Positions 2,826-9,466 of a stretch of 64,000 bases of DNA are shown here, one piece after another. The DNA lies in IMG/VR virus record IMGVR_UViG_3300045747_000505; one strand, 5' to 3'. A model generated the notes under the pieces. That model ran no database searches. It was not told the DNA's origin and saw nothing but the letters and a program-made list of their open reading frames with translations. Numbering within the stretch: position 1 is the first letter of the stretch; each line of letters starts with the position of its first letter. A program made the position numbers and the translations under genes. The stretch is from a virus. Lineage: Duplodnaviria > Caudoviricetes.

Positions 2826-3413
2826 ATGAAAACCGTCGCCTACATTCATGGTCTTGCTGGGTCTCATCGGTCCTTCAACTACATGCTACGGGACCTGCCG
2901 GCGCACAAGAAGATCTGCATCAACTATGCGAGTCATCAACCGCTCGAGAAGTCGCTAGAGCAGATCGTTCACCTTCTACCGAAGGTCGTTCCAATCTCCA
3001 TCGTCGGGCACTCGCTCGGCGGCATCATCGCCCTCCTCATCGCCTGTCAGGGCATCATCAACGTCGAGCGCGTTCTCACCATCTCCTCGCCGATCGCTGG
3101 CAGCAAGGCAGCAAGCCTACTGCGCTGGGTGCCTGGACATCCGGCCGTGATGAGCGACGTCATGCCGCACAGCTCACGCATTCGAGAGCTGTTGGGTTCA
3201 TCCCTTCAGATCCCAGTCACGAACATCATCTCTATCGGCGGACAGCTCGGTGGCAGTCTGGAGCCGAACGACAGCGTTGTCGCCATCTCAAGTCAGAAGG
3301 CGCTGCCGTATGGCACCAAGATCGAGGTCAAGGCGAATCACTTTGAGGTGCTCTCACATGAGCGCACCGTTCAGATCATTCGCGAGGCATTGTTTCAGGA
3401 GGTATTCGCATGA
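2826..3413 (+). CDS. alpha/beta hydrolase (lipase/esterase-like)
   Basis: YIHG oxyanion motif, GHSLGG nucleophile elbow, ISSP, NDSVV Asp, NHF His. Confidence 0.85.
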   Translation: MKTVAYIHGLAGSHRSFNYMLRDLPAHKKICINYASHQPLEKSLEQIVHLLPKVVPISIVGHSLGGIIALLIACQGIINVERVLTISSPIAGSKAASLLRWVPGHPAVMSDVMPHSSRIRELLGSSLQIPVTNIISIGGQLGGSLEPNDSVVAISSQKALPYGTKIEVKANHFEVLSHERTVQIIREALFQEVFA

Positions 3414-4198
3414 ACATTCTGTCGCATCGAGCACGTCTAAGGGCCGGCGAGCGAAAGGCTAGTGAGCGCGCTGCTGAAGCCATGAAGTGCAAGGACGATC
3501 CGCTGTACTTCATCGAGCACTTCATTCGTCTACCAGTTGGCGGGGTTCTGCGTCCAATCCCGCTCTATGAGCTGCAGAAGAATCTGATCAACGAGCTGGC
3601 TACGCACAATCAACTGATCACCAAGCATCCGCGCCGCGCTGGCGTCAGCACGATTGCCATGGCGTATCTGGTTTGGGAGGTGTTGTTTCGCTCAGATGAG
3701 CCGCGCATCGTGCTCGCACCAAACTCCACGATGGCTCGACAGGCGTACGAGACGTTCCGCAGTTTGCTTGGCAGCGTGCCGTTCTGGCTGTCGTCGCCAG
3801 TCGCCTCATCGGTGAACATGTCGCTGGTGCTGATGAACGGCTCAGTCGTCTACTTCGCAGCGGCGAACGCCAATCTGCACTACACGATGACGCCAGCGTC
3901 AATCTACTTCACTGACTTCGCCTACTTCGATTTGGCTGTCGCAAACATTACTTGGGTGCAGCACATCAACTCGATGAATAGAGGCTCACGCGTCTTCATG
4001 CACTCGACGCCAAACACCGCGCTGGACATGTTCGCTCAGCTCTGGTCAAAGACCATCTTTGGTGTGCCACCACTGCACGCGCACAGCATTGGCTATTGGG
4101 ACCTACCGTACGCTTCGCAAGCTAAGTGGGACGCGAACGTTCAGACCTCAGGTCTATACAACACAAAGCGCGAGCTCGGCGCTGAAATACCAGGATAA
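3410..4198 (+). CDS. terminase-ATPase-domain paralog 1, degenerate
   Basis: Colinear with the N-terminal half of 4888..6432 (KCKDDPLYF, LYELQ, STPN); Walker A PRRAGVST, Walker B IYFTDF; no nuclease domain. Confidence 0.8.
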   Translation: MNILSHRARLRAGERKASERAAEAMKCKDDPLYFIEHFIRLPVGGVLRPIPLYELQKNLINELATHNQLITKHPRRAGVSTIAMAYLVWEVLFRSDEPRIVLAPNSTMARQAYETFRSLLGSVPFWLSSPVASSVNMSLVLMNGSVVYFAAANANLHYTMTPASIYFTDFAYFDLAVANITWVQHINSMNRGSRVFMHSTPNTALDMFAQLWSKTIFGVPPLHAHSIGYWDLPYASQAKWDANVQTSGLYNTKRELGAEIPG

Positions 4199-4201
4199 GC
4201 T

Positions 4202-4891
4202 ATGGCACTGATTCTCTCAAAGCGCGCTAAGGACAAGTACGACGCAATGTCCGTTGAGGACTTGTCCTGCTTCGACCCAATCTACTTCATCGAGCATCAC
4301 CTTGAGCTGCCACATCGTCGACGGTTCGATTTGAACGATGAGCAGCTTCATCTGGTGACGCGACTTCACGATGATTTTCTGGTCGTCTGCAAGCAAGACC
4401 GAGGTGTTGGCGTCACTCTCGCCTCCATCGCCTACGCGCTGTGGTACGCTCAGTTCCACAGCAACGTCTTCTGTCTGTTCGTGCTGCCAACCTCTACGAT
4501 GGCAGCGATGGTTCGCGACCAGGCATTGGCTATGTTCGGCTCTCAGAGCGCGAACGTCGGCGCGAGCATGACCTACTACAACCGCGCCGAGGTTCGCTTC
4601 GACAATGGAAGTCGCATTCACTTCTCTCGCCTTCACGATAACGTTGGCACGGGCTACTTAACTAACCTAATCGTCCTTGGCGACGTGACGGTGTGCAACA
4701 GCGAAGAAGTAGTAGACGGACTGAAGTCGCTGCTGCCGGCAATACCAGCAGACGGGCGGCTATTGATTCACGGATATCCAACCACTCAAGATCACTTCTT
4801 CTTCGACTTGTGGCAGATGGGGAACATTCGCTCGTCGAGAATCAATGGACGGACGCTGCACCCAGTTGACTTGGGTGGGGACTTCGTGTGA
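4202..4891 (+). CDS. terminase-ATPase-domain paralog 2, degenerate
   Basis: DPIYFIEH, QDRGVGVT, LWYAQF, YYNR..FDNGSRI, IVLGDV; no nuclease domain. Confidence 0.78.
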   Translation: MALILSKRAKDKYDAMSVEDLSCFDPIYFIEHHLELPHRRRFDLNDEQLHLVTRLHDDFLVVCKQDRGVGVTLASIAYALWYAQFHSNVFCLFVLPTSTMAAMVRDQALAMFGSQSANVGASMTYYNRAEVRFDNGSRIHFSRLHDNVGTGYLTNLIVLGDVTVCNSEEVVDGLKSLLPAIPADGRLLIHGYPTTQDHFFFDLWQMGNIRSSRINGRTLHPVDLGGDFV

Positions 4892-6432
4892 AAAATCCTC
4901 AGATTAAGCGCGCTTACGCGACTGATGAATACACACCTCAAATGGTGATGGAATTACGCAAGTGCAGGACAGATCCTGTCTACTTCATGCGCAACTACGT
5001 GATGATTCAACACCCAACACGTGGAACAATCAAGTTCGATCTCTTTGACTACCAAGAACGGTTCGTTCGACACATGCACTCGAACCGGTTTGTTGTTACA
5101 CTACAACCACGTCAGTGCGGCAAGACGCTGACTGTTGCCATGTATCTTCTTTGGTACGCTTGCTTCATTGATGACGCAACAGTGTTGATTGCTTCTAAGA
5201 ACCAATCACACGCCCTTGAGATCGCTGCTCGTGTTCGCTTCGCCTACGAAGAGTTGCCGAACTGGTTGAAACCAGGTATGAAGTACTACAATCGGCACAA
5301 TCTTGAAATGGACAATGGGTCCCGTATTGTCTCTGAAGCGACGACTGAGAAGACTGGTCGTGGTCTGTCCATCTCCAAGCTGTACCTTGACGAGCTGGCG
5401 TTCATCAACCCACGCATTCAAGAAGAGCTGTGGGCGTCGCTGGCACCAACGCTCTCGACTGGTGGTTCAGCCATCATGTCATCGACACCAAACGGCGACA
5501 CTGAGTTGTTCGCTCAGATCTGGCGCCGTGCTATGTCTGGCTCAGAGGACAAGGCTGGCACCAACTTCGCACCGTTCGAGGTGCACTGGCGTGAGCACCC
5601 AGAGCGAAGCGACGAGTACTGGCAGACGATGGTCAACATGCTTGGCGAGCTCAAGACTCGGCAGGAAGTTGGCTGTGAGTTCCTCAGCTCTGAAGCTATG
5701 CTCATCAGCTCGATGGTGCTCAACAAGCTTGCCGCCAAGATGGTCGACCATCTTGACATGGGCTACAAGTTCTGGGTGCCGAAGGATTCGCTTGGCGGTG
5801 CCGGCAAGACGTACTTTCTGTCCGTTGACCCTGCTACAGGCAACGGCAACGACTTCAGCGTCGTCGAGGTCTTCGACTTTCCAGGGTTGAATCAGATTGC
5901 CGAGTGGCGCAGCAATGACATCAACGTCCCGCTGCTCTACGCCAAGATCAAGTGGATGCTGAACCTGCTCTGTGAGGCGAGGGGGCGCGGGCGCGCCGAG
6001 GTCGTCTGGACGTTCGAGCGCAACGGCATCGGTGAGGCGCTGGCCGCACTCTACTTCAACGATGAGAAGCAGCCAGAGCACGCCGAGCTGTACTGCGACG
6101 TCCCAGGCAAGCTCGGCGTCTACACCACCGGCAAGAGCAAGATTCTGTCCTGCCTTCAGATCAAGCGATTGATCGAGAAGACGAAGGGTGGCATGACGAT
6201 CAACTCTGAGATTCTGCTGTTCGAGCTGAAGAACTTCATCGCCAAGGGTGGAACCTACGAGGGCAAGAAGGGCGCGACGGATGACTGCGTCATGGCGACG
6301 GTTGGCATCACTCGCCTGCTCAAGCGCCTCGCCGACTACAACGATGCTGCGTTCAAGCAGGTCAACGAGTACGTGAACCCTGAGGACGAAGAGGGCGATT
6401 CAGGCGAAGCGATGCCGTTCATGCTGGTCTGA
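4888..6432 (+). CDS. terL: terminase large subunit (T4 gp17-like)
   Basis: Walker A QPRQCGKT, Walker B LYLDE, SSTPNG motif III, nuclease SVDPATG...DFS and DDCVMA. Confidence 0.96.
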   Translation: MKNPQIKRAYATDEYTPQMVMELRKCRTDPVYFMRNYVMIQHPTRGTIKFDLFDYQERFVRHMHSNRFVVTLQPRQCGKTLTVAMYLLWYACFIDDATVLIASKNQSHALEIAARVRFAYEELPNWLKPGMKYYNRHNLEMDNGSRIVSEATTEKTGRGLSISKLYLDELAFINPRIQEELWASLAPTLSTGGSAIMSSTPNGDTELFAQIWRRAMSGSEDKAGTNFAPFEVHWREHPERSDEYWQTMVNMLGELKTRQEVGCEFLSSEAMLISSMVLNKLAAKMVDHLDMGYKFWVPKDSLGGAGKTYFLSVDPATGNGNDFSVVEVFDFPGLNQIAEWRSNDINVPLLYAKIKWMLNLLCEARGRGRAEVVWTFERNGIGEALAALYFNDEKQPEHAELYCDVPGKLGVYTTGKSKILSCLQIKRLIEKTKGGMTINSEILLFELKNFIAKGGTYEGKKGATDDCVMATVGITRLLKRLADYNDAAFKQVNEYVNPEDEEGDSGEAMPFMLV

Positions 6433-6433
6433 G

Positions 6434-6462: not shown

Positions 6463-7206
6463 ATGGCAGGTTTTCTACTCTCGCCTTTTCAAAGCTACGT
6501 TCCGTTGGGGTTCGATGGCTTTCTGCTGAACTTCAATGAGCTCAATGGCTCAGCTACGACGGTTGACAGCTCGCCAGCTGGGCACCCGGTAACGCTTACC
6601 ACCGCCAGAGTTTCATCGACCTCAACTCCACTGAAGTTTCCTGGAAGCTCGCTTTACTCCTCTGCGACGCAATCAGGGTACTATGAAGTTTCGGCTGGTG
6701 GCGTCACGCCGATTGGCACCAACGATTTTTGCGTTGAGGGTTGGATTCGCCCTATTGCGACGGCGGCTCAACAGTCCGCAATCATTCTTCGAGCTTACCC
6801 GAACCTCACAGCCGGCATCGGAGCATTCGACATTTCGATTCACATCGAAGTTCTGACTGCGCCGCTCCGGTATTTTCTGCGGTATGCAATAAAGAATGCC
6901 GATGGGACAACATACTTCACGGTTGATGACACAACTTTAATCTCATTGGGCGGGTCCACTTGGTATCACTGGGCTATTGCTCGCGAAGGCGGCACCGTGC
7001 GCTTCTTCAGGGACGGTGCGCTCGTTGGTTCTGGCGCTTGCACAACAAACTTCACCTCATCACCATCGTGGCGCAGTGCTTTGTCGGTAAGCGTGTCTGG
7101 CAATCCTCGAGCGTTCGTTGGCGCGCAAGAGAGCGTAAAGCTGACAATCGGCAACGCCGTGTACACCCAAGCATTCATTCCGCCAACCTCAGAGCTGAAC
7201 TGGTAA
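6463..7206 (+). CDS. LamG/concanavalin-A-like domain virion protein
   Basis: DFCVEGWI, TWYHWAIAREGGTVRFFRDG; late promoter upstream. Confidence 0.8.
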   Translation: MAGFLLSPFQSYVPLGFDGFLLNFNELNGSATTVDSSPAGHPVTLTTARVSSTSTPLKFPGSSLYSSATQSGYYEVSAGGVTPIGTNDFCVEGWIRPIATAAQQSAIILRAYPNLTAGIGAFDISIHIEVLTAPLRYFLRYAIKNADGTTYFTVDDTTLISLGGSTWYHWAIAREGGTVRFFRDGALVGSGACTTNFTSSPSWRSALSVSVSGNPRAFVGAQESVKLTIGNAVYTQAFIPPTSELNW

Positions 7207-7267: not shown

Positions 7268-8686
7268 ATGCTTCAAGACGGCATCACACTACTCGCCGGC
7301 ACCGTAGCCGTTGACTTTCAGGTCCAGTACGGTACGACATTCCCAGCAACTGGTAACAGCCCTGGCGAGCTGTTCTACAAGACTGACGGCATCGACACCA
7401 AGCTCTGGGTCTACAGCGGCTCGGACTGGGTAGCTTGCGCAACCGGCAGCGGCGTCACGCCTACGGTTCTGACTGGCGGTTCTGGCATTACGCTGGTTGG
7501 CGACATCATCACGGTGACGCTCGACTATGGCACGACGCTGCCGCCAGTCAGCAATGCTGGCAACATGTTCTTCAAGACGAACGACACGTCTGGCAACAAG
7601 CTGTACTTCTACGATGGTGCGGCTTGGGTCGCCTCCGCAGTCATTCCGACGCTCAACTCGCTGCTGCCAACGCAGACCGGCAACTCTGGCAAGGCGCTCG
7701 TCACTGACGGCTCTAACGCTTCATGGACTGACGTCACGGTCAACTTCGATTCGCTGACGGTCAAGGCAGCCGTTCGTGTCGCAACCACTGGCAACATTTC
7801 CCTGTCTGGCACGCAGACCATCGACGGCGTTGCTGTCATCGCTGGTGACCGTGTCCTCGCCAAGAATCAAACCACCGGCACGCAGAACGGTATCTTCACC
7901 GTCAATGCAGGTACGTGGACTCGCACATCTGACTTTGACAACTCACCGGCTGGTGAGGTTCTTGGTGGCGCGTTCTGCTTCGTTCAAGAAGGTACGGTCA
8001 ACGCTGACACTGGTTGGGTCCTCACCAACAACGGCACGATTACCTTCGGCACCACTGCTCTGACCTTCGCTCAGTTCACTGGTTCATCAGCGCCTGCCGC
8101 TGCTGGCTCTCTGACTGGCACGACTCTGGCATCAAACGTGACCGCGTCATCGCTGACCTCCGTCGGCACCGTCACGTCTGGCACTTGGTCTGGCTCGTTT
8201 GGCGCCGTGTCTGGTGCGAACCTGACGTCGCTGACCGCTGCCAATCTGTCCGGTACAACTCTTCCGGCTGGTATCGTCTCATCATCGTTGACCTCTGTCG
8301 GTACGCTCGCATCGCTCGCCGTTACAGGCGCTGTCACAGCTGGCGGCATTGAACTTGGCTATCGTAACATCCCGCGTGTGACCTCGGCTGCTACAACGCT
8401 TGACTCAACTGGCAAGGGTAAGCGTCTGGCGATCACTACCGGCTTCACCATCCCAGCCACGACCTACTCTGACTCTGTTGCCATCGCAGTTGGAGATGCC
8501 ATCAGCGTCTACAACGACTCAGCAACCAACGCGACGCTGACGCTTGGCACTGGTCTCACGGCGTATCGTGACGGCAACGGCACGGTGGTCAGCTCTGGCG
8601 GCACCGTGACACTCGCAGCCCGTGGCTCTTGCGTCATCTGGTACAACACAGTCACGCAGGTCGTCATCAGTGGCGCCGTGACCTAA
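7268..8686 (+). CDS. tail fibre-like structural protein
   Basis: T/G/S/A-rich; LSGTQTIDGV..GDRVL.KNQ..QNGI module; repeated SSLTSVGT; late promoter upstream. Confidence 0.8.
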   Translation: MLQDGITLLAGTVAVDFQVQYGTTFPATGNSPGELFYKTDGIDTKLWVYSGSDWVACATGSGVTPTVLTGGSGITLVGDIITVTLDYGTTLPPVSNAGNMFFKTNDTSGNKLYFYDGAAWVASAVIPTLNSLLPTQTGNSGKALVTDGSNASWTDVTVNFDSLTVKAAVRVATTGNISLSGTQTIDGVAVIAGDRVLAKNQTTGTQNGIFTVNAGTWTRTSDFDNSPAGEVLGGAFCFVQEGTVNADTGWVLTNNGTITFGTTALTFAQFTGSSAPAAAGSLTGTTLASNVTASSLTSVGTVTSGTWSGSFGAVSGANLTSLTAANLSGTTLPAGIVSSSLTSVGTLASLAVTGAVTAGGIELGYRNIPRVTSAATTLDSTGKGKRLAITTGFTIPATTYSDSVAIAVGDAISVYNDSATNATLTLGTGLTAYRDGNGTVVSSGGTVTLAARGSCVIWYNTVTQVVISGAVT

Positions 8687-8695
8687 GGAGTCGAC

Positions 8696-9466
8696 ATGAG
8701 TGGAATCTACATGTCACAGATCGCTGGGATCTACCCAACGATCGCCAACACCGGTGATCCGTACTTTGGCAACGTCGTGCTGCTCATGCACATGGACGCC
8801 AGCGGTCCCAGCGGCATCTATACTGACTCAAGTCCAATTGCTGCGGCGATGGATGCGGCGAACAATACGGCTGGCACAGTCGCCTCGAGAGCAACTGGAC
8901 CAACCCCAAAGTTTGGCGACACCTACGCTACCTTCGGAACCACATCGTCTGGCATTCTCGTGCCGGCCAATGCCGGTTTTGCTTGGGCGCAGGGTGTTGA
9001 CTTCACGGTCGAGTGCTGGGTGTACGTCACAACCGCCCCGTCTGCGCAGATTTGCGGCCAATGGGCCAACTCGGCGTCAACTGCGCCACGCAATCGTTGG
9101 CAGCTGCACCTGCAAGCAGGTAAGCCGGCTTGGTCAATCGCCCCAACTGATGGGGCTGGCACAGCCATCACGCTATCATCGTCAACGGCGCTCACTACAG
9201 GCGCTTGGAACCACGTTGCCGTCTCGCGCTCAGGTGCGTCGACTCGTATCTTCCTCAACGGTACTCAGACAGGCATCAACACCACGACGCAAAACATTGC
9301 CGTTACCTTCGACCAGACGGTCCGACTTGGCGTTGGACGCGTCATCACTCAAACAGCCGGCGGTCTCGGCACCACCGGTTTGATCGACGACTTCCGCATC
9401 ACAAGCGGTGTCGCTCGCTACACGACGGCCTTCACACCACCGACCGTCGCGTTCCCGAACGCGTAA
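8696..9466 (+). CDS. LamG domain tail-associated protein
   Basis: DPYFGNVVLLMHMD, DFTVECW, WNHVA.SR, IDDFRITSGVARY. Confidence 0.85.
   Translation: MSGIYMSQIAGIYPTIANTGDPYFGNVVLLMHMDASGPSGIYTDSSPIAAAMDAANNTAGTVASRATGPTPKFGDTYATFGTTSSGILVPANAGFAWAQGVDFTVECWVYVTTAPSAQICGQWANSASTAPRNRWQLHLQAGKPAWSIAPTDGAGTAITLSSSTALTTGAWNHVAVSRSGASTRIFLNGTQTGINTTTQNIAVTFDQTVRLGVGRVITQTAGGLGTTGLIDDFRITSGVARYTTAFTPPTVAFPNA

Follow-up and report, generated by a model that had tools for sequence, protein, structure and literature searches.

We analysed a 64,000-nucleotide stretch of viral DNA (Duplodnaviria; Caudoviricetes; IMG/VR record IMGVR_UViG_3300045747_000505), here called the window, and find that the gene of its large terminase subunit, terL, is directly preceded by two tandem genes, copy A and copy B. 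Both very probably belong to a family of catalytically dead, selected paralogs of the N-terminal ATPase domain of TerL (TerL-N), and we hold, tentatively, that they may act as non-catalytic partners or regulators of TerL. Copy A (3410..4198, + strand) encodes 262 amino acids and copy B (4202..4891, + strand) 229 amino acids with a shorter lid region. The terL gene that follows (4888..6432, + strand, GTG start) encodes a T4 gp17-type protein of 514 amino acids that matches Pfam Terminase_6N and Terminase_6C and in which the Walker A motif, the arginine finger, the Walker B motif with catalytic Glu and the RNase H-like nuclease domain are all intact. Copy B is recorded on a 273-kb contig of an uncultured jumbo phage.

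Homology and predicted loss of catalysis

The translation of copy A aligns colinearly with residues 22–265 of TerL (BLASTP E = 5e-26, 23% identity) and that of copy B with residues 11–232 (E = 2e-22, 27% identity), and the two copies align with each other at E = 2e-16. Both match PHROG 5989, a TerL family (4e-25 for A and 6e-15 for B), and Pfam Terminase_6N matches A at 6e-5. AlphaFold2 models of A (mean predicted local distance difference test score, pLDDT, 94) and B (pLDDT 90) resemble the ATPase domain of T4 gp17 (2o0j) with TMq values of 0.84 and 0.77, respectively, and the best Foldseek matches of both models are 2o0j/2o0h. A and B thus have in common with T4 gp17 and the TerL of P74-26 (Terminase_6N; 2o0h, 2o0j, 4zni) the modelled fold and the domain boundaries, together with the DPxYF N-terminal motif, the Q motif, the Arg, Gly and Ser/Thr of the P-loop and the STP coupling motif. 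Unlike these enzymes, they lack the Walker A Lys, the Asp/Glu pair, the arginine finger and the nuclease domain, and they evolve 2–5 times faster than TerL.

Walker A reads PRQCGKT in TerL, PRRAGVS in A and DRGVGVT in B, the Lys being replaced by Val in both copies, and the Walker B motif with the catalytic Glu reads LYLDE, IYFTD and IVLGD in the same order. The arginine finger of TerL, R158, is located 11 residues before the catalytic Glu and aligns with R139 of P74-26, a column occupied by Arg in 4zni and by Ala in the R139A mutant 4znj; its counterpart is Tyr in A and Thr in B. Both copies stop at the boundary between the ATPase and nuclease domains, have no Terminase_6C match, and share a C-terminal end that is precise and conserved. 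From these residues, A and B are predicted to be catalytically inactive.

The genes are tightly packed. The start codon of A shares the sequence ATGA with the stop codon of the gene before it, AGGAGG is located 7 nt before the start of A, the gap between A and B measures 3 nt, and the GTG start of terL overlaps the stop codon of B (GTGA). The initial annotation of the window, made from the letters alone, had described two real open reading frames (ORFs) colinear with the ATPase half of TerL, replacement of the Walker A Lys by Val, loss of the Walker B Asp-Glu pair, absence of the nuclease domain and in-operon packing; each of these observations holds, and the terminase ATPase fold that it presumed is borne out by the models.

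Selection on the copies

Related loci are designated by L numbers. Our survey of copy number covered 80 IMG/VR loci found with a TerL alignment; an IMG/VR scan with the TerL sequence alone had given no pattern matches. The order of A and B and their intact reading frames recur in L004, L005 and L006, three diverged relatives from metagenomes, whose orthologs are 80–84% identical to A and 59–66% identical to B. Ratios of nonsynonymous to synonymous substitution rates (dN/dS) were determined by the Nei-Gojobori method with bootstrap bounds, at dS values of 0.4–1.1, and amount to 0.15–0.17 for A (bootstrap upper bound 0.26) and 0.24–0.29 for B (upper bound 0.42), compared to 0.07 for the TerL ATPase domain (upper bound 0.10) and 0.09 for terL. 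A and B are therefore constrained, though they evolve faster than TerL. Across the four lineages, at this divergence, neither stop codons nor frameshifts were found in A or B. Neutral decay is rejected by these selection data, in agreement with the earlier suggestion that the copies are intact and retained for a non-catalytic function, and the same three-gene arrangement, which the initial annotation had proposed to seek in related phages, is found there with conserved synteny, without frameshifts and without signs of neutral evolution.

A wider family of short copies upstream of terL

We searched 1.84 billion representatives exhaustively with HMMER, obtained 13,612 matches and examined the best 150. 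These 150 include short TerL-N proteins (<370 amino acids) with neither the Lys nor the Asp-Glu pair, which form no fewer than 48 clusters when grouped at 50% identity. A word-indexed search with the family alignment added little. Five further family members were looked up, and all five directly precede terL; in one case, on a 349-kb contig, the order is again hydrolase, copy, terL.

Comparing 48 representatives of the family with 64 TerLs, we find that Lys79 is present in 0% of the copies and in 100% of the TerLs, and that Glu169 is likewise present in 0% of the copies; Tyr55 and Arg240 are lost as well, and position 158 is Arg in 42% of the copies. Phe33, Arg75, Gly78, Ser/Thr80 and Phe208 are present in 100% of the copies and Gln56 in 79%, and the DPxYF, NGS and STP motifs are kept. 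Arg75 is equivalent to R39 of P74-26, which contacts the γ-phosphate of ATP (10.1101/080440). This pattern of conservation points to a nucleotide pocket that is constrained in the copies without hydrolysis.

Every true TerL keeps RQxGK[ST] and the Asp-Glu pair, and the short upstream copies lack both, with the exception of those in L022 and L023. The arginine finger is kept in the copies of L007, L009, L014, L022 and the Xanthomonas phage Xoo-sp13 and is lost in A, B and the copy of L008. A separate set of proteins (P0050, P0094, P0096, P0101, P0112, P0149 and P0153) comprises full-length TerL relatives that read SRQxG(I/V/M)(S/T) and keep the Asp-Glu pair. These proteins may have a deviant P-loop, so that loss of the Lys alone is not to be read as inactivity.

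Copy number and origin

The number of copies varies among relatives and can be read against a neighbouring gene, an alpha/beta-hydrolase of esterase/lipase type (2826..3413, + strand; Pfam PGAP1, Abhydrolase_6 and Lipase_3 matches), which ends where copy A begins. Two copies are found in the window, L004, L005 and L006, the only lineage seen with a tandem pair. One copy is located between the hydrolase gene and terL in L007, L008 and L009/L051, the hydrolase orthologs of L007, L008 and L009 (50–55% identity) lying directly upstream of the copy, and the order hydrolase, then copy recurs in L095, L097 and L109. L014 also carries one copy, with no hydrolase ortholog detected, and single copies occur in the more distant loci L022/23, L028-30 and L036 and in Xoo-sp13 (gp242). 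No copy separates hydrolase and terL in L010, L012, L035 and L016, in which the hydrolase ortholog is directly upstream of terL; a cryptic copy at this position was considered in these four loci and rejected, the ORF there being the hydrolase. As an observation on the neighbourhood itself, the hydrolase gene is kept right before the terminase cassette across the jumbo-phage clade.

In the nearest relatives, the one copy present already lacks the Walker A Lys, and a maximum-likelihood tree places A and B together with the copies of L007 and L008 (Shimodaira–Hasegawa-like approximate likelihood ratio test, SH-aLRT, 90). A and B thus appear to share a dead ancestor and, in the simplest history, probably arose by duplication of a gene that was already inactive; their losses would then not be parallel, which weakens the initial argument from a parallel loss of the same residues in two divergent copies. 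In the same tree, 14 copies stand apart from their cognate TerLs (SH-aLRT 94), with long branches involved, and the approximately unbiased test does not reject that the copies arose recently within the clade of the window (difference in log likelihood 18.4, p 0.107).

L022 carries a 206-amino-acid TerL-N copy upstream of terL (L022:4563-5180) with intact GKT in Walker A and DE in Walker B, and a TerL-N fragment of 126 amino acids (L022:2948-3325) 1.8 kb further upstream; both are present in the same form in L023. The intact-motif copy and the fragment may represent a young stage of duplication.

Related genes in cultured phages

A Megablast search with the locus as query found no match among cultured phages. 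TerL itself has a profile match to T4 gp17 (PDB 3ezk) at E = 4e-133 and is closest to the protein of Ralstonia phage RsoM2USA (47% identity), followed by XacN1 (43%), Xoo-sp13 (41%) and PA5oct (38%). Homologous TerL-N proteins without Lys and Glu occupy the slot of A and B in Xoo-sp13 and in L007, L008, L009, L014, L095 and L097; in contrast to A and B, these single copies mostly keep the arginine finger. The protein of Xoo-sp13, gp242 (L003:5271-5966), is annotated as 'terminase small subunit'; it is a paralog of the TerL ATPase domain and not the small terminase, and we correct the annotation accordingly. A gp16-like small terminase subunit (TerS) of this phage is encoded about 8 kb upstream of terL (MN047793.1 160618-161052, E 4e-38), and its equivalent in XacN1 is located at AP018399.1 154284-154712. 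ORF256 of XacN1 occupies the same slot as gp242 and shows no detectable homology. Both Xanthomonas jumbo phages further contain, about 5 kb upstream of terL, a third and very remote TerL-N/P-loop-like ORF (L108:1381-2118, Xoo-sp13 gp247, and L107:1492-2274, XacN1 ORF261), matching the copy profile at E 1.6e-9 and 9e-6, respectively. Sinorhizobium phage Phosso encodes a TerL-N paralog of 281 amino acids that lacks Lys and Glu (L106:1297-2139; PV764938.1 about 250012-250500).

The ORF that precedes terL in Rak2-like phages is a remote member of the family, with Walker A sequences of RQRGTT in Hallingskeid CDS0387 and PRIGTT in 121Q gp3. The Rak2-like phages (vB_PcaM_CBB CBB_274, 121Q gp3 and Hallingskeid CDS0387) and the Sinorhizobium phages phiM12/phiN3 resemble the window in having a short, co-oriented ORF directly upstream of terL with a partial match to the gp17 ATPase domain and no nuclease domain; they differ from it in that only one copy is present, which resembles A and B only remotely (profile E 1e-7 to 1e-11). 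In 2017, a 'truncated large terminase' shared by all Rak2-like phages and also found in phiM12/phiN3 was called 'unusual', without functional analysis (Buttimer et al. 2017, PMC5259590), and the loss of catalytic residues, the selection and the breadth of the family are not noted there. A review of jumbo phages (PMC7824862) makes no mention of truncated large terminases, and our literature search found no description of a pseudo-ATPase or inactive TerL paralog. The initial description of the arrangement as an undescribed system is therefore overstated: this kind of truncated terminase is already noted in the literature and uncharacterised, and what is new is the two-copy state without the arginine finger.

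Proposed function and alternatives

We propose that the copies go back to a tandem duplication of part of terL, its 5′ half, which would have given rise to an inactive copy, and that a second duplication of this inactive copy in the window lineage would have produced A and B. Most likely, the copies would still bind nucleotide and/or dock on TerL via the ATPase–ATPase ring interface, and they would partner or regulate the packaging enzyme without hydrolysing ATP themselves, for instance by restraining or chaperoning TerL before it meets the portal, or by tuning ring assembly. Binding of nucleotide and/or docking is suggested by the scaffold of the pocket, which is kept (the adenine-side Phe and Gln and the Arg, Gly and Ser/Thr of the P-loop), together with the trans arginine finger, which persists in the majority of single-copy members. 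We favour a role as partner or regulator on the grounds of the invariant buried pocket residues, the finger in most single copies and the translational coupling to terL. Since close relatives package DNA without any copy, A and B would be accessory modulators and not core parts of the motor. Non-catalytic paralogs are familiar from other oligomeric P-loop ATPases, such as the clamp-loader subunits delta and delta-prime and the Rad51 paralogs, in which, by analogy, a degenerate site is combined with a preserved fold and interface and the gene stands beside that of the active paralog.

Several observations weigh against a partner or regulator of TerL. L010, L011, L012 and L035 have no copy although their TerLs are 69–73% identical to that of the window, and from such close relatives it follows that the copies are dispensable for packaging as such. 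The range of copy number from 0 to 2 and a dN of the copies that is 2–5 times that of TerL fit a gene engaged in conflict equally well. The copy of Phosso is 52 kb from its terL, so that linkage to terL is not universal. The arginine finger, whose presence would speak for ring docking, is missing from A and B themselves, and the fold models of A and B were built on alignments rich in TerL sequences. A complex prediction of TerL(1–500) with A and B gave an ipSAE of 0.00, which is evidence neither way.

In published descriptions, the ATPase ring of a viral packaging motor is homomeric and works together with TerS and the portal. In a stricter form of the proposal, which we regard as improbable, the dead paralogs would be stoichiometric partners of TerL on the ring interface, nucleotide-bound and non-hydrolysing, and the packaging enzyme would be hetero-oligomeric. 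If this were true, the motor would have dedicated non-catalytic subunits in a clamp-loader-like division of labour, with the partner subfunctionalised into A and B; to our knowledge, such a division of labour has never been described for a viral packaging motor.

The alternative that survives best, and that we still consider rather unlikely, is that the copies are anti-defence mimics that are made together with TerL, resemble its ATPase fold and would occupy or blunt host sensors of the large terminase (STAND NTPases of the Avs1-3 type or other receptors) while leaving them untriggered. Avs1-3 recognise TerL by its fold, to which they bind directly (PMC13581612). The modelled retention of a TerL-like fold is consistent with such a role, as are the polymorphism of 0, 1 or 2 copies among close relatives and the evolution faster than that of TerL, both typical of arms-race genes, and translation just upstream of terL would place a mimic when TerL appears. 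Avs sensors are, however, activated by target binding, so that a faithful mimic should trigger them and a non-activating mode must be assumed. Furthermore, the P-loop Arg, Gly and Ser/Thr are buried and 100% conserved, which a pure surface mimic does not need, and no paper on a terminase decoy was found in the literature. Either as partners or regulators of TerL or as mimics, both of which the initial annotation had raised, the copies would constitute an overlooked accessory layer next to a well-studied motor, serving packaging control or the evasion of terminase-sensing immunity. The family spans Rak2-like phages, XacN1/Xoo-sp13-like phages and the uncultured jumbo-phage clade of the window, and the natural series of 0, 1 and 2 copies together with cultured carriers (Xoo-sp13, 121Q, CBB and Phosso) makes its function testable.

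The initial annotation had also considered that the copies replace the small terminase, in which case they would have taken over DNA recognition from the slot upstream of terL. This slot is indeed the position of T4 gp16, the Xoo-sp13 homolog carries the corresponding annotation, gene 16 is reported missing in Rak2 (PMC3622015), and no gp16-like gene was found in the 64-kb window, the short contigs retrieved for copy B reaching no further upstream than its start. A and B have, however, no Pfam or PHROG match to TerS and are by homology not of the gp16 type; an hhalign comparison between the family of the copies and the gp16 cluster gave a probability of 0.1%. Moreover, a gp16-like TerS (similar to PF11053/phrog_445) is encoded 5–13 kb before terL whether or not a relative carries copies: in L008, L009, L051, L011 and L012 (E 1e-47 to 1e-53), and also in L014, L035, L028/30/36, RsoM2USA, XacN1, Xoo-sp13 and Phosso. 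Relatives without copies have only this gp16-like TerS, and it coexists with copies in L008, L009/L051, L014, L028/30/36 and Xoo-sp13. We therefore reject the replacement of TerS, which we judge to be extremely improbable. By synteny, the TerS gene of the window phage would lie about 0.5–8 kb before the start of the window.

Equally improbable is that the copies are neutral debris, functionless remnants of terL duplication or of homing-endonuclease activity: the clade has a hot spot of HNH homing endonucleases at the terL locus (L006, L098 and L109) and partial fragments such as the 126-amino-acid piece in L022 exist, but the reading frames are undisturbed in four lineages under the dN/dS values given above, residues are invariant across the family, the C-terminal domain boundary is precise and conserved, and a strong Shine–Dalgarno sequence is combined with translational coupling.

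Other features of the locus

Genes of HNH/NUMOD3 homing endonucleases are present at the terL locus in L006 (L006:1062-1664), L098 (L098:2540-3142) and L109 (L109:6541-7542). The gene in L006 sits between copy B and terL, and a gene of this type splits terL into ATPase and nuclease ORFs in L098 and probably in L109/L110.

Scans for sigma-70 promoters and terminators remained at chance level, and no T4-late-like promoter motif was found upstream of the block formed by the hydrolase gene, A, B and terL. Within the window, T4-late-promoter-like NATAAATA motifs are enriched (11 found versus 2.2 expected), with positions at 6433, 7230, 13497, 15493, 24640, 31278, 34826 and 45031. Two of these motifs are located just upstream of structural-like genes that follow terL and begin at 6463 and 7268. 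Directly downstream of terL, 6463-7206 and 8696-9466 encode paralogous Laminin_G_3 (concanavalin-like) proteins, and the ORF between this pair (7268-8686, 472 amino acids) has head-decoration/tail-fibre-like PHROG matches.

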